From IMG/VR virus record IMGVR_UViG_3300005259_000012, positions 1 to 38,084 of that record: a DNA stretch of 38,084 bases; one strand, given 5' to 3'. Shown piece by piece: positions 197-12,814 of the stretch. Source of the stretch: a virus. Lineage: Duplodnaviria > Caudoviricetes. Position 1 is the first letter of the stretch; every line of letters begins with the position of its first letter. The translations under genes were made by a program, and so were the position numbers. The notes under the pieces are model-generated. The model saw only the letters and a list, made by a program, of their open reading frames with translations, was not told the DNA's origin and searched no databases.

Positions 197-1474
197 ATGG
201 GATTATATAAACGCAGTGATACATGGTGGTGCGATTTTACTGTTAACGGCAAACGTTATCGGCTTTCAACTGGTCAGGCCAAGAAAGACGACGCGGAAAA
301 ATGGGAACGCGCCAAAGTTTCCGATTTGCGTGGAAATAAAGCCACTACTCAACTTTACCAAACCGTAAAGGCTGGCTTGGTTGAAAAACAAATTACTTTC
401 GCGGAAGCCTGGGAACACTTTAAGACATTCCCTCGGAAACATACGCCAGGAGAATCTGCAATCCGATATTATCAATCAACCTGGGAAGATTTTGTTGCGT
501 TTGCGGTTGATAACAAATGTTTATCCATTGCTGATGTGACGGAAGTTTTGTCACAACGCTATATTTCCCAAGTTAGAGAGCATGGCCGCTATTCACCGGT
601 GGAATATCGACGCGGCGGTAAAACTGTTGTCGTCCCGGTGGAAAAACTTTCGGACAAACTTTCTAATCGAACACAAAACGCATATCTGGTATCGTTAAAG
701 GTTATTTTTGATACGCTGGTCAAGGGGAAATACTGCCTGGAAAATCCATTCAAGGAAATTGACAAGCTGGCGACGGAATCGGTTGACCGAGAAGCTTTCA
801 CTCCCGAGGAATTACGGCTTATCGGCGAAAAGTCAAAAGACACCTGGTTGTATCCGCTGTTTTTGACCGGCATATGCACCGGGATGCGTGAGGGCGATAT
901 CTGTTTACTGGAATGGTCCAACATTAAAGACGGCTGGATCACGCGTAAAACGCGTAAGACCGGCGCGGAAATCAACTTGCCGATATTGCCACCTTTGGCC
1001 GCGTATTTGAAGTATCTGCCGCATTCCGGACAATATGTATTCCCGCAACTGGCCGCAACCTATCAAAAAGATTCGGCAGTTATTTCTAAAGCAGTCAAAG
1101 ACTTTCTGGCATCCTGCGATATTGTTGCGACAAAAGAAGTCGAAGGGCGCAGCCGGAAAGCATCGATCAAAGATGTTCATAGCCTGCGTCATACGTTTGC
1201 CTATATTGCCGCTGTCAATAATATTCCTCTGCCGATTGTGCAGTCAGTGCTCGGACACATGTCACCGGCAATGACCAAGCACTACATCGATCATGCGAGA
1301 AAAGAAGAAAAGGCAAAATTTCTGGCACAGTTGCCGGATTATCTATCCGCAGCCGCTCCGGACATAGAAAAAGCCGCGCCGGACTTGGTAACGATCCGGG
1401 CGCGGCTGGAGGCGATGACCGCCGAGAACTGGTTGACGGTCAGGGCTGAACTGCTGGCGCAGCTGGCACAATAA
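197..1474 (+). CDS. int: Tyrosine recombinase / phage integrase
   Basis: N-terminal arm-binding-like domain (WWCDFTVNGKRYRLST); catalytic TGMREGD, HSLRHT, LGH..MTKHY motifs. Confidence 0.95.
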   Translation: MGLYKRSDTWWCDFTVNGKRYRLSTGQAKKDDAEKWERAKVSDLRGNKATTQLYQTVKAGLVEKQITFAEAWEHFKTFPRKHTPGESAIRYYQSTWEDFVAFAVDNKCLSIADVTEVLSQRYISQVREHGRYSPVEYRRGGKTVVVPVEKLSDKLSNRTQNAYLVSLKVIFDTLVKGKYCLENPFKEIDKLATESVDREAFTPEELRLIGEKSKDTWLYPLFLTGICTGMREGDICLLEWSNIKDGWITRKTRKTGAEINLPILPPLAAYLKYLPHSGQYVFPQLAATYQKDSAVISKAVKDFLASCDIVATKEVEGRSRKASIKDVHSLRHTFAYIAAVNNIPLPIVQSVLGHMSPAMTKHYIDHARKEEKAKFLAQLPDYLSAAAPDIEKAAPDLVTIRARLEAMTAENWLTVRAELLAQLAQ

Positions 1475-3966: not shown

Positions 3967-5238
3967 TTAATTGTAGAGGATGAAGAATGAATAAGTGCTG
4001 CTGCCCCAAACGGTAAAGCTGGTGCCGCCGTTCTCGAACTGCGTCATATATGAGTAGCCGATAGGAACTTCCATGCCAGTCTGCAATGAGTTGACTAAAT
4101 ACCCGGACGTATATTGCGTTTGTGTGAAGTTGTAATTGGAACCATTGTAAACCAGGAATGTATAAATACATCCTGATCCGCCAGAGGCATACTGACCAGA
4201 ATGTCCAGAGATGTATTGCGGCATTCCCAAGATAAACTCGCCACGAACCTGTCCTGTCCCGCCGTTGTATTCACGCGCCGTGCTCGTTGTATACGTCCAT
4301 GAGGCGTTTGTGTTGTATGTCGCGACCCGGCGCACGCGCTGGTTATAGTAGTTCCAGACAAAGCGCTGATAAAGGGTATCGGCACACGTCCCCGCCGTGG
4401 AAGTGGTTCGGATCATACCAAGATAACGATAAGTTGGCGCTCCAGATTTGACGTAAATGCCATCCTGCATTGCCAATGCCGTAGCCCGTGCATTATTACC
4501 GCTCCACGCTACTGCGGTCAAGGTAAGCGTACCGGCGTTGTTGTTGAGGAAAATATCGTAATTGGTAGTGGCTGCCAACCCCGTTAACGCCAGCGACAAC
4601 GTTGAGAACGCATAGTTTGCCCACTTGGTACCGTCATATAGCGCCACATCATTGCCGTTGTACGGCGCAAAGTATAGCGTAGTTCCCGCTGATACGGATG
4701 TGTTGCCTTCTGGATCGGCACTGGCAAGCGTCAAACGGCCGCAAGCCGGATGATGCAGTTTACTGTCCAACGCGGCCAGGTTTGTGTTAGCGGCACTTGC
4801 GTTATTGGCGGCATTAGTGGCGCTGATCACGGCAGCAGCGGCAGCCGCAGCCGCGGACTCTGCGCTGGTATTGGCATTAGTGGCACTGTTTGCTGCGTTG
4901 GTGGCGGCAGTCTGCGCCTGAGTGAGCAAAGTATTAAGGTTGTTTTGCGTCGTGGCGGACAAATTGCTGATCGAAGTTACGGCGTTAGCGGCAGCCGTCG
5001 TGGCCTCCGCAATTGCCGCCTGCAACGTTGCCCACACGTCATCGCTCAACGAGATGATAACCGGCCCTAAGACCAGTTCTGACGCCGAATACCAGGTTCC
5101 GCCAACTTTACGATAATATTTTCTGGTCAACGTATCACAGTAATAGTCGCCATTACTGCCCGTGTCCGTTGCCGGTATTCCCTGCGCCTCAATATAAGCC
5201 TGATTGCGCAGGGCGGTAAAAAATTCACTGATTGTCAT
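3967..5238 (-). CDS. Tail fibre / receptor-binding protein
   Basis: N-terminal P..TGSNGDYYCDT..YYRK...W module, Ala/Asn coiled-coil shaft, GRLTL..TLYFAPYNGN domain, aromatic/Gly-rich tip. Confidence 0.75.
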   Translation of the reverse strand: MTISEFFTALRNQAYIEAQGIPATDTGSNGDYYCDTLTRKYYRKVGGTWYSASELVLGPVIISLSDDVWATLQAAIAEATTAAANAVTSISNLSATTQNNLNTLLTQAQTAATNAANSATNANTSAESAAAAAAAAVISATNAANNASAANTNLAALDSKLHHPACGRLTLASADPEGNTSVSAGTTLYFAPYNGNDVALYDGTKWANYAFSTLSLALTGLAATTNYDIFLNNNAGTLTLTAVAWSGNNARATALAMQDGIYVKSGAPTYRYLGMIRTTSTAGTCADTLYQRFVWNYYNQRVRRVATYNTNASWTYTTSTAREYNGGTGQVRGEFILGMPQYISGHSGQYASGGSGCIYTFLVYNGSNYNFTQTQYTSGYLVNSLQTGMEVPIGYSYMTQFENGGTSFTVWGSSTYSFFILYN

Positions 5239-8200
5239 ATTTATCTCCTAAGACTTGCTGTCTTGCCCGACTGCGTTCCTGCCGGAAAATCTCTTTTATC
5301 TGACTGATGTCTTTATCAGAGGGATTTGCCGGATTAAGCTGACCGGCAGCAATGGCGTTGTTTATGGCAATTCTGGCATTTCTGCCCGCCTGTTGCGCGT
5401 ACCTGTAATAATCATCAGCATTTATATAATGGGTTTGATTATGCTCGCGGACAGTAGGTTGAGGCGCAAGCGGCCAATATGCAGCATCCGGATTCGCGCG
5501 ATTATAGTTCCAGAGCAGAGTGTCAGCGTCGGCCATGCCTGCCGGAGTAGACCGCACCGGCGACATGATCCGCCAAAGCATCGGCGGCACCAGGGTTTCT
5601 CCCGCGTCCTTGCTGATTTCATTGCCCCAAAGATCCAGTTTAGGCAACGGCGTAGAAAAACCCGTGCCGCGACTGGCATTAACCCAGAACGTATCGAGCC
5701 ATTGATCAAGTCCTGGCTGTAAATGGCTTTTGTTATCTCTGACAACCTCATCCATGCCGTTGACCGTCTGGCGCCAAGCGTTGGGAATCCATGATCCGGC
5801 GAAATTGCCGGTAAACTTGGCAATATCTCCACCACCTTCCGCCGCTTGAATCAGATCGCCAACCGCGTTCAAAAAAGTTTTGTCGCGGATATTTTGGACG
5901 GCAGAATTAAACAGCATCTTGCTTACTGTTTTGCCGTCTGCCCCATTACGAGCCATTTGCAACGCGCTGATGCCGTCAACTATCATTGCCAGCCCCTCAG
6001 CCAGCGGCTCGATGCGGTTATACGAGTACCAGGTGTCACCGATGCGGATCGAGGTCGGCGGCAGATTCCGCGCCATGAACGCGCCTTTGCCGCTGTCAAA
6101 AACGCCCGGCTTGGTTCCGGTGATCCACGGTTCACTGTCCTGATCGGGCTGACTCATTGACCACAACGCGCCCACCGTACCCCATGCGAGAACCTGTTCC
6201 GCCAGATGATGAATGGACTTGGTATCGAGCTTGCCGCGATTGCGCAATAATTCGGCTCCGAACTGCAATGCCCCGAGCGGAGATTTTCTAATCCCCGTCG
6301 TCAGAATATTGGCTGGCGTTTTTATAAACGGCAGCATAAACTTAGCCACCCAACCGGCCGGGGAATTGGATTCACGCAACTGCATCAGACGTTCCAGCAT
6401 CGGCCAGGGCTTGTTTTGAAATGCCAGTTCGATTGCGCGGTTACGCCCATGCAGCACGGCAGCGGAACGCGGATCGGCCAGTTGCTCTTTAATGCTGGCA
6501 GCCAGCTTGTCGCCGGACAGCCCTGCGGCCTTGGCCATACGATAAGCATAGGCGCTGGCTTCAACCGGCGCGACAATTCCTTTCGCCAATTCATCCGCCG
6601 CCACCAGGAAGCGTCCGGGAATACGCAACGCACGTCCCCATTTGCCACCGATAGCGGCATGGATATCGCCGGACTCGAATTTAGTTTCAGTTCCCAGGTG
6701 TCCGTTGGTTACCGGCAATTCCAGATCAAACGCTTTGACCGCATTTTTAAACGCGTCTTTCCAGTTGTGCCGGAACGCCTGATTCATCTGCTGGAACTCG
6801 CCGAAGCTTGCCGCTTCCGGATTCTTAACAAACTTATTGGCCAGCGCTTCAACAAAGCGGGTCGGCAAAAGATCCAGCGCTGCGTTGGCAATATTGCCCA
6901 ACGTATTTGCCGCATGGGTTTGCGGTCCGCTCAAAACCGAGTTGATCCAATATTCATAAACCTTATCGCCCAATGTGGCTTTGGCGGCTGAGATATCGCG
7001 CATAATCGACGCAACCATCTTTGTGTTGCTTGCCTGTTCCGGCGTCAGACCGAACGGATCAACGCCGTATTTCTGACGGATCGACTTGATAAGCGTGTTG
7101 ACGGTATCCGCTTCGGATTCGGCAAACTGTTTACGCGCGGCCGCCTTGAGGTTGTCCAGCTTGGCTTTTGCTTCCGCGCTGTTGGATTCTCTATATTCGC
7201 GCTGCGCTTCTGAGATTTTGTGCTGCATGTCCCGATATTTCTTGGACGGCAACAGCAACATTTCCTTGATCGCATTGCGATGAAATTCTTCCGGCGATTC
7301 GTATTCCTTGACGCGTCCGGCCGCCAGACTGCGCCCTGCTTCGGTGCGGGATTCAACATAATTCATCATTGCGTTAACCGCGGTCAAATCCTTTTTCCGG
7401 TAACGCTCGATCCAGTCTTTCGAGTTCATGAGCTGCTGACCAAGCCGAATATTCAAATCGCTGTCAGCTTTCAGCTCACCGGACGCCATACGGTCAATCA
7501 ATGTATTAGCCCCGTCGCGCTCGATCATGGCTTTCGCCTGCTGGTCAAGCGTTTCCCAATCAGACCGGCCGGGCTTATAATCCTCCATGATATCGTCATG
7601 AGCCTTGCGCGTATCCGGATTATCGCCGGGATTAACCTGGTGTTTTTCCCGAAGCGAATAATCATCCTTGACATTTTCCGGATTAACGCTATCCTTATTT
7701 ATGACGGCGTTAGGCTGGGCTCCGGCTTCTTCTAGCGGCAGATGCGACAATTCACTATCTGCTGAGCGGTTCAAGGAGCGCGATTGGTCGCTGATCGCGG
7801 ATGCAGGATGAGCAGTGTCATCAGGCTTAATTTCGTCAGAAATAACGGTGTCGTTTGGCCCTTGCTTTTCTAGCGGTGGATGCAGTTTTGATTTTCCACT
7901 GAGCGGTTCAAGGGGCGCAGTTGACTGCTGACTGCGGCTTGCGGAGAATGCCCCGTGAGACCAAATCCTGACACCGTTTATTTTTTTTCGTAATTCAGGA
8001 TATTCCGGGAATGCAGTTACAATTGAATATGCGTCTTCCCCTTGAATCTTTCTTAGTTCAATCGCACTAAATCCTTTGGGATAGCCATGTTTGACCAAAA
8101 GATAACGTCCGTAATTCCCCCTATCCGCCTGATACCATATTTCGCTGGGATTGTTCAATACATTGTGAATATATGAATCAGGATTATAGCCGTAACGCGC

Positions 8201-11200
8201 AAAATCTTTTTCGTGGCCAATTATAGTATGAACCGCACCGTATCCGTTGTGTTCGCTTCGATGCTCACCTTTCAGCATAACGATTTTGCCGGGATCGATT
8301 TGGCCCTTGGATTCCTTGACCATTTCCGGCGTAATCTCGCCCCAGTGGTTTTTACCATCCGGCGCATTGATGATTTCATGCGGCTTAATCGTTTCATCTT
8401 CGGCCGCCTCTTTGAGCTTTTTATCATGTCCATGTCGCAATGAATATGAGTTTTCCTTGACGCCGGTAATTCGTTGCGCCTGACGCATGGCATCATTGCT
8501 GCGCATTCGTTGCCAGGTACCAGACGACGGAGCCCATTTAAATCCATGGCTTTTTAAATCATTTCGAATGGATTCATCAGGTTTGCCGCTAAAAACAATC
8601 TGTACGCGATTGGCTTCCGCATTATCTACGATCTTGCCGCCGTCAAACGCAATTTCATGAGTGGCGTTATTGTTGCGGCGTTCAAGTTGAATAATTCGTC
8701 CCTGTATGCGTTTGATTTCGGCATTGTTATTAGTTAGCTGAAATTCGGCAAATCCCATCCGCCCCAGATTGTCCGGTACGAATAACTCACGAACTCGATC
8801 CGGCGTAATTTTCCCGGATGCATCGAGCGAGGCAATCTCATTGACTTTTTCATCCTGCGTTCCCGTCTTGCGGCGAATAATGGCATTGGCTTCTTTCATG
8901 AAGTCATGCATTTTTTGCAAGCTGAGCAACTTTTTTTGCAGTTTATCAATCGCGTTCGGATCATCACTGGAAATTGACCGTTCCGCTGACTTTTTCTGCG
9001 GCACTTCCAGCTGCACTTCAATATTGGACTGTTCCCGATCGCTCCACTTAATCGCTTCGTCAAACCTCTTTTGTTCGGTGGCAATCCGCTTTAAATTGCG
9101 TTCTGTCGGAAATTTTGCCGGTCCGACAATCATCGGACTCATGGTCTGAGCCTTAGCGCCAAGATACGTCAAAAGTTTATTTCGATACTGTTGAGCGTAT
9201 TTTTCTACAGCGGCGGGGATTTCCGACTGGTGTTCGGCGGGGACTTTTGTCTGCAATCGCCGATAAAATTCAGCAACATTTTGCGCGTAGCTTTTTTCTT
9301 CCTGAAGCGCACGAATTTCGGGATCATGACTAATTGCATTATAAGCAATGCAAGCGGTCTGCCCCAGCGGTTCAAGTTTAAACGGCAGGGCATCAACATC
9401 GGTCTTGAGTTGCTGAAGATATTCGGGACGGGAATTGCGAAGCAGTGTAACACCGGACAGGGTATCTATATACGCACTGCCATAATCGGCCGGTTTTACT
9501 GTTTCTTGATGTTCTGCGACAACGTCGCCACCAGTAGCTTTTCTTTCGGCGTCTGCGGATTTTTCATCATTTGTTCCAACCGTTCTTTCCGGTTGGAATA
9601 AGTCGGCTTCTTGTCCATGGTCAATGCCCTTTGCCGTTTCATGCAGCAGTTGTTCTTTGCCCTGCGGTTCTGCCCCGAACATGTCGGATGTCTGATTGTC
9701 GATCCGCTGTCCGAGTTCAACATAATCGCCAAGCCATTCTCTAATCTGTTTCATCGACGCAGATTTGTCAAGTAGGGCCAAGATAAAATCCCCTGCGCCG
9801 GTAGACGCCGGAGCATCGAACAAAGATCCCTGCGCCAGATAATCATCCAGCGTTTTCGCTTCGCCGCGCATGACCGCCTTGCGATACGCCACGTAATCGC
9901 GCAAGGCCTGCGCCAGATCATGTCTGATATCGTATTCCGGCTTATCCTTGGCCAGCTTGAGCACTTGACCCGTCATCGACATAACGCCGTCAACCTGACG
10001 CTTGATCCCCAATGCGGAGCGCTGTTCCACCAGCGTCGTTAACAATTGGCGGCTTTCGAGCTCTCCGTGCAGCAAAGCACCCAACACCGCATAGCGTACC
10101 CGCTGCTCTAAAGCCGGGCTGAAAGAGCCGGCAGAATTCAAAAGCGACTTATCGCCCACCGCGCGAACAAACGCCCGGTTAAAATCGTCGTTGCCGCCGG
10201 TCATGATTTCGCCGTCGTCGCCCGGATTAAAATGGTCAAGCAGATTACTTTTCCGCAATTCAATCCCGTCGGCTTCCGCCTGCTCTGCTACCGTGCGCTG
10301 CAACTTGTTGTCACGATTGGACAATTCCGCAATCCGGGCAAGTTCGGCGTCGTGTTCCGGCGCGATTTCACGCACCAGTACCGGACGCTTGACGTTTTCG
10401 GGAATCGCCATGCCACGCTGACGGGCAAAATCAGCAACCGCGCTGGCATAATGATCCGCTTTTCCGGCTTCATAAGCTTTGCGCAGCGCCATTGTACGAC
10501 CGTTGCCGGAAATCACCTGACCGTTTTTATCCGTCAAAGGCGCTCCGGTATCCGTCAACGGTGATTCGCCCAGGAGTTCCGGCTTGATATTGCCGCTCAT
10601 CTCCGCAATCTGCGCCTGGCTTGACGCCGTATCGCGATTGCGCGGCTGATACGTCTGATTATAGGCCGGATGATCGGACGTCATCACCTGATCGGCGTCG
10701 GCAATCCGATAGCGCCCCGATACTTTGACATTACCCTGCGGCGTCAACGCATCAAACATGTCGGATGCAGGAGGCTTGACAGATGTTTCCGCCGATTTGT
10801 TACGTTTTCTACGTTCAATGTAAAAACGATCATTCGCTTCACTCACACGATATTCATTGTGTTTATCGCCACTATTCAGCGATCCGGCTTCCGCTTTTGC
10901 AGCCTTGATTTCATTGTAATCTGCCTCTTTCCAGTTAATCCAATCTCCGGCTTCATAGCGAGCCCGTAACTGTTTCTTTGCTTGCTGAGATTCAAATTTT
11001 CCTCGAGCCGCCTTCACTGCGTTTATTACCTCTGTGGTTCCGGCAACATGGCGCTGTGCATCATTGAGTTCTTCTTGTTCAATGGCATTTATTTCTTTGT
11101 CGGCTTGAACGTCCCGCAAGCGATTTACCCGATCCCGATAACGAGATTCATAATCCGGCCCTTGCTGACGTTTCTTGAATTCCGCCACCATATCGACGGC

Positions 11201-12814
11201 GGCGGCGCGTACTTTGTCCAGATTTTTAATGTAGCTGTCGGCACCGGACAAGCCTTTGACTTTGTTTTTGATCGCTTCGACAAAGCGGATCACGGCCTGC
11301 GCCATGCGCTGACCCATACCCGGCTGCTGTGATTCAAGACGATCGCCAAGGTCACGCCAGAATTGCGGATCGGTAAAACGCTGGCCTAATACGTCGTTGG
11401 CAAATTCCCTCTGCCGGTCAACATTGGAAAGGTCAATGCCCCGGTCGGCATACGTTTTGCCGATGCGGTCCAGCACCTCAGTGTGATTGTCGGCGGCATG
11501 ATCGATCACCGACTGACGGAACACATCATACAATTCCGGATGCTGCCGTTCGATGTAATGGCCGAATTCGTGGCCGGTGGCAATTGCAGGATGTTCCGCC
11601 GTAACGTCGGCATTGACATACAACCGGTCTTTTCCAGTCAAAGTAGCATTGATCGGTTCATCGCTATGGAAATAGACCGGTTCCAAGCCGGTCAGTTCCT
11701 TGGTCGTGTCCGCCATTGCCCGCGCCGCCCGGCTACGCGGCTGGACGATTTGGGCGCTGTCGGCATTGCCGCCCATGCCGGTAATCGACTGGCGCAAATC
11801 AGCGACCGTTTCCGGGTCAACTTTATCCATTGCCGAAAAATGTTTGGTGTTATAAGGCGTTATCGGCGCGGCAGCCGGTTCCGGCGCAACATCAGGAACA
11901 GCGGCGGGCATTGCGGTGTTTTCCGGCATTGGTTTATCGGCCGGAATAAAATCTTCACCCGGATTTATTATCGTCGTCGCGTCATCCGTTTTCGGCATTG
12001 CTCCGGCATCCGGTGTCTTTGCGGCGATTCGCTTCATGGCCGCGCCTGCACCGCCAATCGCCATGCCGGGGATCGCGCCAGCGGCAAAAGTTTTCATCAG
12101 ATCATCGGCATTGATTTCAACTCCGGCGCCCGCACCGTATTTAACGGCACTGTTCATCAGATCCGCCAGCACCATTGCACTACCGGCTTCACCGCCGCCC
12201 TTTACCGCGTCAAGCACAACCTGCGTACCAAAGCGGCGCGACGTATCTTTTATCGCGGAACCGGCAATCTCCCTGGTAACGCGTCCGGCCATCGCACCCG
12301 GACCGGCAAAGGAAAAGAGCGCCGACTGCAATCCGGTTGAAGCAGTTGCCAGTGCGTCAATCTGCGCCGGACTGGTGTTGGCTGGCATTGATCGCCGCAT
12401 GTCATCCACGGTATCGCCGTACATCTGGGCGGCATTGGCGGCAAACATAGCCGCACCGCCGACATACGGATTACCGCCGGAAGCAGCGGCAGCGGCAACC
12501 CCGACGCCAACCTGACCGGCCATGCTGCCGGCGCCCTTGCCGAGCGTGCGCGGAATATCCATCGGATTGAGCGGATTGTAATCCGGGTAATCATTCCATT
12601 GCTGATGTGACTGCGCGAAGTCCTGGACGGTTTCATGTGCCGCCGCGCCGCCGGGAAAATTCAGCTTTTCTGCCGTGTTCGCTACCGACTGCACCGCATT
12701 GAGCGCGCCGGAGGCAAAGGCTTTACCGGTTTCAACAATAGGATTGCTTTTTTCCGGCGGCAAATATCCGCGGCTGCGCAACAGTCCGTTAAGTTCATCT
12801 TGAGTAAGCGGCAT
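5225..12814 (-). CDS. Giant virion ejection / polyvalent protein (2529 aa)
   Basis: Gly/Ala hydrophobic N-terminus; HEFGH metallopeptidase motif (~11560); DdrB-like ParB domain (QPRNR..GAP..SGNGR, ~10280-10740); ISSDDP..GFKWAPS..WQ module (~8470-9370); BECR-like nuclease (GYGAVH..YSIVTAF, ~7960-8350); C-terminal PFIKTPANI region typical of internal virion proteins. Confidence 0.85.
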   Translation of the reverse strand: MPLTQDELNGLLRSRGYLPPEKSNPIVETGKAFASGALNAVQSVANTAEKLNFPGGAAAHETVQDFAQSHQQWNDYPDYNPLNPMDIPRTLGKGAGSMAGQVGVGVAAAAASGGNPYVGGAAMFAANAAQMYGDTVDDMRRSMPANTSPAQIDALATASTGLQSALFSFAGPGAMAGRVTREIAGSAIKDTSRRFGTQVVLDAVKGGGEAGSAMVLADLMNSAVKYGAGAGVEINADDLMKTFAAGAIPGMAIGGAGAAMKRIAAKTPDAGAMPKTDDATTIINPGEDFIPADKPMPENTAMPAAVPDVAPEPAAAPITPYNTKHFSAMDKVDPETVADLRQSITGMGGNADSAQIVQPRSRAARAMADTTKELTGLEPVYFHSDEPINATLTGKDRLYVNADVTAEHPAIATGHEFGHYIERQHPELYDVFRQSVIDHAADNHTEVLDRIGKTYADRGIDLSNVDRQREFANDVLGQRFTDPQFWRDLGDRLESQQPGMGQRMAQAVIRFVEAIKNKVKGLSGADSYIKNLDKVRAAAVDMVAEFKKRQQGPDYESRYRDRVNRLRDVQADKEINAIEQEELNDAQRHVAGTTEVINAVKAARGKFESQQAKKQLRARYEAGDWINWKEADYNEIKAAKAEAGSLNSGDKHNEYRVSEANDRFYIERRKRNKSAETSVKPPASDMFDALTPQGNVKVSGRYRIADADQVMTSDHPAYNQTYQPRNRDTASSQAQIAEMSGNIKPELLGESPLTDTGAPLTDKNGQVISGNGRTMALRKAYEAGKADHYASAVADFARQRGMAIPENVKRPVLVREIAPEHDAELARIAELSNRDNKLQRTVAEQAEADGIELRKSNLLDHFNPGDDGEIMTGGNDDFNRAFVRAVGDKSLLNSAGSFSPALEQRVRYAVLGALLHGELESRQLLTTLVEQRSALGIKRQVDGVMSMTGQVLKLAKDKPEYDIRHDLAQALRDYVAYRKAVMRGEAKTLDDYLAQGSLFDAPASTGAGDFILALLDKSASMKQIREWLGDYVELGQRIDNQTSDMFGAEPQGKEQLLHETAKGIDHGQEADLFQPERTVGTNDEKSADAERKATGGDVVAEHQETVKPADYGSAYIDTLSGVTLLRNSRPEYLQQLKTDVDALPFKLEPLGQTACIAYNAISHDPEIRALQEEKSYAQNVAEFYRRLQTKVPAEHQSEIPAAVEKYAQQYRNKLLTYLGAKAQTMSPMIVGPAKFPTERNLKRIATEQKRFDEAIKWSDREQSNIEVQLEVPQKKSAERSISSDDPNAIDKLQKKLLSLQKMHDFMKEANAIIRRKTGTQDEKVNEIASLDASGKITPDRVRELFVPDNLGRMGFAEFQLTNNNAEIKRIQGRIIQLERRNNNATHEIAFDGGKIVDNAEANRVQIVFSGKPDESIRNDLKSHGFKWAPSSGTWQRMRSNDAMRQAQRITGVKENSYSLRHGHDKKLKEAAEDETIKPHEIINAPDGKNHWGEITPEMVKESKGQIDPGKIVMLKGEHRSEHNGYGAVHTIIGHEKDFARYGYNPDSYIHNVLNNPSEIWYQADRGNYGRYLLVKHGYPKGFSAIELRKIQGEDAYSIVTAFPEYPELRKKINGVRIWSHGAFSASRSQQSTAPLEPLSGKSKLHPPLEKQGPNDTVISDEIKPDDTAHPASAISDQSRSLNRSADSELSHLPLEEAGAQPNAVINKDSVNPENVKDDYSLREKHQVNPGDNPDTRKAHDDIMEDYKPGRSDWETLDQQAKAMIERDGANTLIDRMASGELKADSDLNIRLGQQLMNSKDWIERYRKKDLTAVNAMMNYVESRTEAGRSLAAGRVKEYESPEEFHRNAIKEMLLLPSKKYRDMQHKISEAQREYRESNSAEAKAKLDNLKAAARKQFAESEADTVNTLIKSIRQKYGVDPFGLTPEQASNTKMVASIMRDISAAKATLGDKVYEYWINSVLSGPQTHAANTLGNIANAALDLLPTRFVEALANKFVKNPEAASFGEFQQMNQAFRHNWKDAFKNAVKAFDLELPVTNGHLGTETKFESGDIHAAIGGKWGRALRIPGRFLVAADELAKGIVAPVEASAYAYRMAKAAGLSGDKLAASIKEQLADPRSAAVLHGRNRAIELAFQNKPWPMLERLMQLRESNSPAGWVAKFMLPFIKTPANILTTGIRKSPLGALQFGAELLRNRGKLDTKSIHHLAEQVLAWGTVGALWSMSQPDQDSEPWITGTKPGVFDSGKGAFMARNLPPTSIRIGDTWYSYNRIEPLAEGLAMIVDGISALQMARNGADGKTVSKMLFNSAVQNIRDKTFLNAVGDLIQAAEGGGDIAKFTGNFAGSWIPNAWRQTVNGMDEVVRDNKSHLQPGLDQWLDTFWVNASRGTGFSTPLPKLDLWGNEISKDAGETLVPPMLWRIMSPVRSTPAGMADADTLLWNYNRANPDAAYWPLAPQPTVREHNQTHYINADDYYRYAQQAGRNARIAINNAIAAGQLNPANPSDKDISQIKEIFRQERSRARQQVLGDKYDNQ
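7668..7695 (+). promoter_or_regulatory. Intragenic antisense sigma70-type promoter
   Basis: Perfect TTGACA (7668-7673), 16-nt spacer, TATCCT (7690-7695); predicted +1 at ~7701-7702 coincides with the first base of the structured unit. Confidence 0.65.
7702..7988 (+). ncRNA. Candidate antisense ncRNA of two tandem structured units (7702-7838, 7844-7978) ending in a U-tract
   Basis: Shared TTCTAGCGG and CTGAGCGGTTCAAGG; compensatory stems; G-U pairs on +; closing stem AACGGTGTC/GACACCGTT followed by TATTTTTTTT. Confidence 0.7.

Follow-up and report, generated by a model that had tools for sequence, protein, structure and literature searches.

Candidate antitoxin RNAs encoded opposite predicted BECR-fold RNase domains in phage polyvalent proteins and on plasmids

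We examined a two-unit RNA gene and the predicted RNase domain behind which it lies in the virus record IMGVR_UViG_3300005259_000012; the whole stretch analyzed, 38,084 nt, is called the window here. A preliminary description of this DNA had reported a promoter, two structured units and a T-tract on the strand opposite a giant open reading frame (ORF), and all of these elements are present where it had placed them (Table 1). Following PMC5512222, we call the 2,529-aa product of the ORF a polyvalent protein, because it carries a ddrB-like ParB domain and matches PBECR2 weakly. The whole RNA gene is antisense to this ORF, and the 3′ end of unit 2 extends into the final codons of the nuclease domain. 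Folding confirmed that both units form the same four-way junction. To this we can add a 5-bp loop-loop pseudoknot, or kissing pair, in each unit. The two copies of a shared 15-mer lie 137 nt apart and are read by the ORF in different frames, as SLNRSA and PLEPLS, which bears out the earlier view that conservation here is at the nucleotide level.

Table 1. Features of the RNA locus, its nuclease domain and related elements
Feature	Position	Strand	Basis or context
Predicted sigma70-type promoter for the RNA, TTGACA-16-TATCCT	7668..7695	+	Equivalent promoter in family members
RNA unit 1: P1 four-way junction, P2 with conserved internal loop, P3, P4	7702..7838	+	Folding, covariation, covariance model
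Unit 1 internal-loop motifs, UCUAG and AGCGGUU	7731-7735 and 7765-7771	+	
Unit 1 kissing pair, 5 bp, GCGAC/GTCGC	7744-7748 with 7787-7791	+	
RNA unit 2, architecture as unit 1	7844..7978	+	Folding, covariation, covariance model
Unit 2 internal-loop motifs	7869-7873 and 7902-7908	+	
Unit 2 kissing pair, 5 bp, GCAGT/ACTGC	7882-7886 with 7924-7928	+	
T-tract after P1 stem of unit 2, likely terminator	7981..7988	+	Sequence; RNA-library contig ends
PBECR-like (BECR-fold) predicted RNase domain, aa 1473-1618	7961..8398	-	Pfam, model, conservation
His1529 codon	8228-8230	-	
Thr1600 codon	8015-8017	-	
Polyvalent protein, 2529 aa: ddrB-like ParB, weak DUF3560, PBECR-like	5225..12814	-	In virion gene block
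Phage integrase beside tRNA 3′ part (1-54)	197..1474	+	Temperate phage context
Family F RNA gene beside solo PBECR-like gene	L290:2030-2180, plasmid CP082493.1	-	Unannotated

The statistics of this single locus are modest. Folding z-scores are -1.16 for unit 1 and -3.11 for unit 2, and since the values on the minus strand are similar (-1.14 and -3.01), folding energy does not fix the strand. Promoter-like sites in the window number 4, with 2.4 expected, and a terminator scan of the window did not include the T-tract among its listed sites. A covariance model matches unit 1 with an E value of 6e-17, the model having been built from a set that includes this same sequence. Searching the window with Rfam 15 returned only a tRNA at the gathering score and no credible weaker match. 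The case for an RNA gene rests on homologues. We accept it because they show covariation, a promoter at a fixed place and the use of all three reading frames, and because matching contigs occur in RNA libraries.

Homologues were collected by a DNA-only scan for the two internal-loop motifs, which gave 12 viral matches, 70 in metagenomes and 31 in genomes. Among 96 distinct matches, the window included, 2 were too short, 77 had no adjoining domain and 17 were domain-adjacent, these last being chosen regardless of structure. In 17/17 the RNA lies downstream of the domain and antisense to it, and all 17 keep the P2b helix and the 5-bp pairing between the P2 and P3 loops, at an offset of 15 to 16. 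When the 5-mers were exchanged between sequences as a control, 62/252 kept the pairing. Both pairing thresholds were passed by 17 of the 77 domain-free matches, 14 of them with the right offset, and L163 was dropped by eye to leave 13. In an alignment of 30 copies, 95.4% of the cells are paired, against 66.7% in shuffles and 33 to 47% in slid controls, and 18/21 pairs have changes on both sides. The pseudoknot is paired in 100% of its cells through 15 different 5-mers, with 5/5 of its pairs doubly changed. The 3′ motif is read in protein as TAQ 6 times, PLS 7 times and NRS 4 times, that is, in all three frames. A TTG..A...T promoter stands 50 to 70 nt upstream of the motif in 20/29 copies, compared with 5/636 control windows. 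Promoter and covariation, which the preliminary description had proposed to look for in homologous linkers, are both seen among these copies. Both units of the window are members of a structured RNA family, here called family A, that Rfam does not contain. A peptide antitoxin encoded on the plus strand was considered and rejected: an ORF of at least 15 aa preceded by a Shine-Dalgarno sequence occurs in 2/30 copies and is not conserved.

A single unit is the rule among the relatives, and local duplications were seen at the window, at L145 and in the Chromatiaceae assembly G002. The relative P0003/L131, 63% identical over the region, has one unit only; unit 2 is absent, which is visible as a 46-aa gap. 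The tandem pair first described is real here, but it is atypical, and the parallel drawn from it to the tandem repeats of ToxIN was not supported. In a looser motif scan we found 119 loci. The RNA model, run on 99 of these (L100-L119 were left out), made one match, L083, a copy in a tRNA array identical to L126 below.

The RNA and the domain were found together from both sides. Starting from DNA motifs, 5/12 viral matches of the DNA-only scan lie immediately behind the domain, on the strand opposite to it. Starting from protein, the translated footprint of the RNA follows 40/123 related domains and 4/1488 control windows. One antisense unit with its own promoter also accompanies a domain that is 35% identical (L120). 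RNA and domain travel as a cassette into different polyvalent proteins, much as the first description had it.

The domain is predicted to be an RNase. In Pfam its PBECR2 match has an E value of 9.1e-5 and 23.1 bits, where the curated cut-off is 27.1, and PBECR3 scores 16.5, where it is 30. The predicted structure has a predicted local distance difference test (pLDDT) value of 84. In a wide structure search its best match was the contact-dependent growth inhibition (CDI) toxin 7m5f_C (Z 6.3; root-mean-square deviation, 3.9; 100 aligned), and next came BrnT, RelE, YoeB and colicin D/E5 domains at Z 4 to 4.7. This fold match is middling yet consistently BECR. His1529 is kept in 149/150 related domains and Thr/Ser1600 in 149/150, the same His plus Thr/Ser pattern that makes up the PBECR active site (PMC5512222). 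What stands of the BECR-type RNase domain first proposed is a BECR-like domain with the PBECR residues and a PBECR2 match under the cut-off. Atlas neighbors of a solo protein of this family, P0159, carry PBECR1/3. No relative turned up in a protein scan of metagenomes, the GenBank phage set had none of the domain, of a branch-B protein or of the RNA, and PADLOC and NCBIfam gave nothing useful. Separately, some proteins match part of the domain repeatedly: P0037 (1,460 aa) in 24 stretches, P0092 in 7 and P0108 in 5.

We then compared the window with 7 metatranscriptomes from peat and a bioreactor; in four of them, 19.9 kb of the window was compared. Each of the 7 runs has one contig of 151 to 260 nt from a close relative (90 to 99% alike), lying inside 7722-7972. 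Six of the 7 end at 7971-7972, and 4 clearly span both units. Elsewhere in the 19.9 kb, the four runs gave only chance fits of 31 to 37 nt, which does not prove silence there. The relative has compensatory pairs in P3 at 7783/7795 and 7784/7794. If a 9-letter loose end is in register, it has two more, at 7721/7777 and 7716/7823, with one end pair broken. These contigs are a hint, not proof, of a discrete transcript.

Other branches of the domain family have RNAs of their own. At 33 viral loci (L256-L288), RNAs of families B to E lie about 0 to 150 nt behind the domain on the minus strand. By eye they share a four-way junction, a closing P1, an internal loop within P2 and kissing between P2 and P3, and the internal loop is branch-specific. 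In family D, 92.3% of cells are paired, with 13 double changes and a pseudoknot at 100% (8 sequences). A TAnnTTTG box, which we take to be the Bacteroidetes -7 box, stands upstream in 17/19 D and E loci and in 30/1117 windows. In a weakly supported tree of the domains, the B and C footprints cluster; 68 of the 150 domains had no assignable footprint. Rfam gave no match in the 20 loci searched, out of these 33.

Solo nuclease genes of the domain family are present on 111 plasmid records. We sampled 9 plasmid loci spread down the ranking (L290-L298), from plasmids of E. coli, Salmonella, Pseudomonas, Aeromonas, Vibrio and Serratia, together with the viral locus L138. In 10/10 solo loci the nuclease gene is followed, past its stop codon, by a convergent, non-overlapping RNA gene of family F, and the two have a terminator hairpin in common. 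The marks of this RNA gene, a kissing ACCAG/CTGGT and a GAACCC..GCTAAGG motif, were drawn from these same loci and have 3 chance matches in 1.77 Mb elsewhere. Family F shares the P2a-loop-P2b plus P3 kissing module; 84.5% of cells are paired, with 10 double changes and a pseudoknot at 100%, while the pair-type count is not above shuffles (351/500) and one helix register is poor. A simple rule finds its promoter in 7/10 solo loci, and matches to one family F RNA occur in 82 plasmid records. Annotation of the 9 plasmid loci shows no conserved partner gene in the same orientation, and in the 10 solo loci Rfam found only plasmid RNAI, elsewhere. The family A model detects none of families B to F (34 loci), and the kinship of these RNAs to family A is therefore argued only from the architecture seen by eye and from the D and F pair counts.

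Family A also occurs without the nuclease. The 13 distinct copies with no adjoining domain keep the structure. Several of them are intergenic in assemblies of Terrimicrobiaceae, Spartobacteria and Chromatiaceae and have a promoter and terminator of their own. The Chromatiaceae assembly G002 has three (L243, L246 and L247), near integrase and CHC2 primase-like genes; two of them are separated by 343 nt and each has its own promoter and terminator, and from this setting they appear satellite-like. Another genome, G239, has three copies with intact-looking structure (L249, L253 and L255) beside decayed nuclease remnants. In 6/6 genomes or records with free copies only, the nuclease was not found, so the RNA is tolerated where the enzyme is missing and does not depend on pairing with the enzyme's mRNA. 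This bears on a type I-like explanation, in which pairing with the polyvalent mRNA, or promoter interference, lowers nuclease synthesis and the structure merely stabilizes the RNA. A type I antitoxin overlaps its toxin mRNA at the leader or the 3′ end and requires complementarity only, and in families A to E there is indeed perfect positional complementarity, with overlap of the last codons of the domain. The AbiF RNA, moreover, also reduces expression of its toxin (10.1101/2025.04.15.648962). However, the site in the window is about 4.8 kb from the start codon, the RNA of the solo loci lies beyond the stop codon with only the terminator in common, and the free-standing copies lack a target mRNA. 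Nor would complementarity alone select an invariant internal loop or a covarying pseudoknot. We give antisense control of this kind little credence.

Strong matches to family A are sporadic, in 1/151, 4/151 and 1/121 genomes of three groups (29 to 37 candidates scored per genome), and a housekeeping host RNA was rejected on this count. The free copies have integrase, primase-like, IstB-like, Vsr, PIN, RadC or LysR genes as neighbors. Such scatter and such neighbors (integrase, primase, IstB-like, RadC and PIN genes), along with the local duplications, would suit a small selfish or mobile element that inserts behind such domains and is functionally unconnected with them. Against this, no genome searched has more than 3 copies, six sequence families each occupy the same in-frame place behind homologous domains, and promoter style differs by branch; we regard an element of this sort as very improbable.

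Two free copies lie in tRNA arrays, L126:2469-2555(-) on a 123-kb viral contig and L167:1471-1555(-), each directly after a tRNA gene; neither has a nuclease gene close by. At L142, the motif CTGAGCGGTT was also found as the D-arm of a tRNA gene (tRNA-Ser, one scan match). The likeness of CUGAGCGGUUCAAGG to a tRNA D-arm is a lead only, possibly toward substrate mimicry. These phage tRNA arrays and the D-arm match of the 3′ motif, like the complex tertiary fold and its branch-specific internal loop, would fit an RNA that acts as partner or product of the nuclease (scaffold, activator or substrate in a ribonucleoprotein), or as a decoy for a host RNA-binding or defense protein, beside the enzyme that would mature it. 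But intact copies persist where the nuclease was not found and beside its decayed remnants in G239, the virion protein and the cytoplasmic RNA would be separated at injection, and no variable, spacer-like segment was seen. The last point also speaks against the guide role raised in the preliminary description. We consider a partner or decoy unlikely, though less so than antisense control.

We favor an RNA antitoxin because free copies occur without the nuclease and because the solo genes have a convergent, non-overlapping RNA gene. On our analysis, the RNA probably binds and inhibits the predicted BECR RNase in the manner of a type III antitoxin. The broader proposal, to which we would give an even chance, is that a superfamily of kissing-loop RNA antitoxins, with genes on the opposite strand, neutralizes BECR RNases of the PBECR-like family. 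The apparent low-complexity linkers behind these domains in giant virion proteins would then be RNA genes. The same RNAs would account for lysogen immunity against an injected phage effector, for antidotes stolen by hosts, satellites and lytic phages, and for a two-gene form on common E. coli plasmids. The sigma70 promoter would drive RNA synthesis both in the lysogen and while virions are built, and the RNase within the giant protein would be held off by the RNA in the producer cell. Injected without the RNA, the protein would have an active RNase in a naive host, and this RNase would be blocked in a cell already making the matching RNA. Free-standing copies may be captured antidotes that give immunity to hosts and satellites, and those in phages with tRNA arrays may serve as counter-defense. 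Solo plasmid genes, each with its convergent RNA gene, would represent the system in a stand-alone, two-gene version. If the RNA inhibits the RNase as we propose, this would explain why tertiary structure is conserved independently of reading frame and why no protein partner lies beside the solo genes. It would also explain why copies persist where the enzyme is missing, a situation like that of phage pseudo-ToxI (PMC3475682), and how an RNase carried in the virion could be assembled without harm and act after injection.

A number of points weigh against an antitoxin acting on an RNase. On the enzyme side, Pfam scores of the domain fall under the cut-offs, the fold match has only middling strength, and Foldseek with the domain model found no match at an E value of ≤0.001. 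On the RNA side, the two motifs are invariant by construction, since the search pattern demanded them, and the 13 free-standing rows of the 30-copy alignment were selected by the same pairs that were later counted. As for linkage, the genomes in which the nuclease was not found are incomplete, and one group of relatives (50 domains classed as "other" and 18 as "short" among 150) ends or goes on with no evident linker. In the weakly supported domain tree, family A is spread over several branches and does not form one clade, which weakens strict one-to-one cognate pairing. The metatranscriptome contigs are strandless and come from RNA runs only, without a DNA run. The same variants occur in peat and bioreactor runs, possibly from one organism or campaign, and their source may be a free-standing copy.

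Toxins paired with an RNA are known from ToxIN, from TenpIN and from CptIN, a further type III toxin-antitoxin system; the abiF motif is an Rfam family. ToxIN and TenpIN, found on plasmids and other mobile DNA, combine an endoribonuclease with an RNA that has a pseudoknot and a constitutive sigma70-type promoter (PMC3401426), and our systems are alike in this, the RNase being predicted. The toxins of ToxIN and TenpIN have a Kid/MazF-like fold, whereas the fold here is BECR and the Pfam matches of the domain are to PBECR1-3 only. Their antitoxin consists of tandem short repeats (36 nt in ToxI) located upstream and cotranscribed through a terminator (PMC3401426). Here, in contrast, the RNA is a multi-helix unit of 120 to 190 nt, usually single, located downstream on the opposite strand and often inside the toxin's own frame. 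The pseudoknot is a kissing pair, unlike the hairpin-type knot of ToxI. Since fold and gene layout differ, the systems described here are not members of the ToxIN, CptIN or TenpIN families. AbiF and its noncoding RNA RCd22 are similar in that a prophage toxin is bound directly by a structured RNA with two motif copies and is neutralized in cis or in trans, but AbiF is an Abi_2/AbiD/F protein linked to Cas13 ancestors and not a BECR protein (10.1101/2025.04.15.648962). Phage TE carries pseudo-ToxI, a copy or mimic of an RNA antitoxin without the toxin, and L126 and L167 may be similar cases. Pseudo-ToxI targets ToxN and arose by repeat expansion (PMC3475682).

With the PBECR domains of polyvalent proteins (PMC5512222), our domain shares the His plus Thr/Ser residues, the virion-gene context, the solo versions, the ddrB-like ParB and probably the family. 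As far as its accessible passages go, that paper describes no RNA partner or self-protection for these domains, and the word "antisense" occurs 0 times in its main text. CDI toxins, colicin D/E5 and BECR-Tox2/Imm2 are alike in fold and in predicted metal-independent RNase chemistry (10.64898/2026.08.28.747851). Those BECR toxins are neutralized by a protein encoded next door, whereas none is evident here and an RNA gene is found instead. As far as its accessible text goes, this 2026 BECR classification describes no RNA partner of PBECR domains. In our literature searches, with subscription papers and supplements outside their scope, these RNA families were undescribed. Large candidate-RNA catalogs could list these motifs in their supplements. 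The RNA superfamily is real and apparently undescribed.

At least six RNA families missing from catalogs come with this finding. It suggests, in a form open to testing, how phages can include a predicted RNase in a virion protein without an immunity protein beside it. If correct, RNA antitoxins would also serve against toxins of the BECR fold and occur in a layout where the antitoxin is antisense inside the toxin's frame, one missed by type III searches and intergenic-RNA searches alike. A 2026 genome-language-model paper states, in its accessible part, that structured RNAs embedded in coding sequence are beyond its modeling. The solo form on 4.7-kb ColRNAI plasmids is the easiest system for testing, in E. 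coli. One E. coli ColRNAI plasmid with a solo gene is NZ_CP063480.1.

The window as a whole represents a temperate phage, probably a podovirus-like one. Its left end has the 3′ part of a tRNA and an integrase, and its virion block includes a P22-like portal, SU10 adaptors and a capsid gene. A gene for a DNA/RNA non-specific endonuclease (PF01223), at 1440-2099 on the minus strand, is convergent with the integrase gene.

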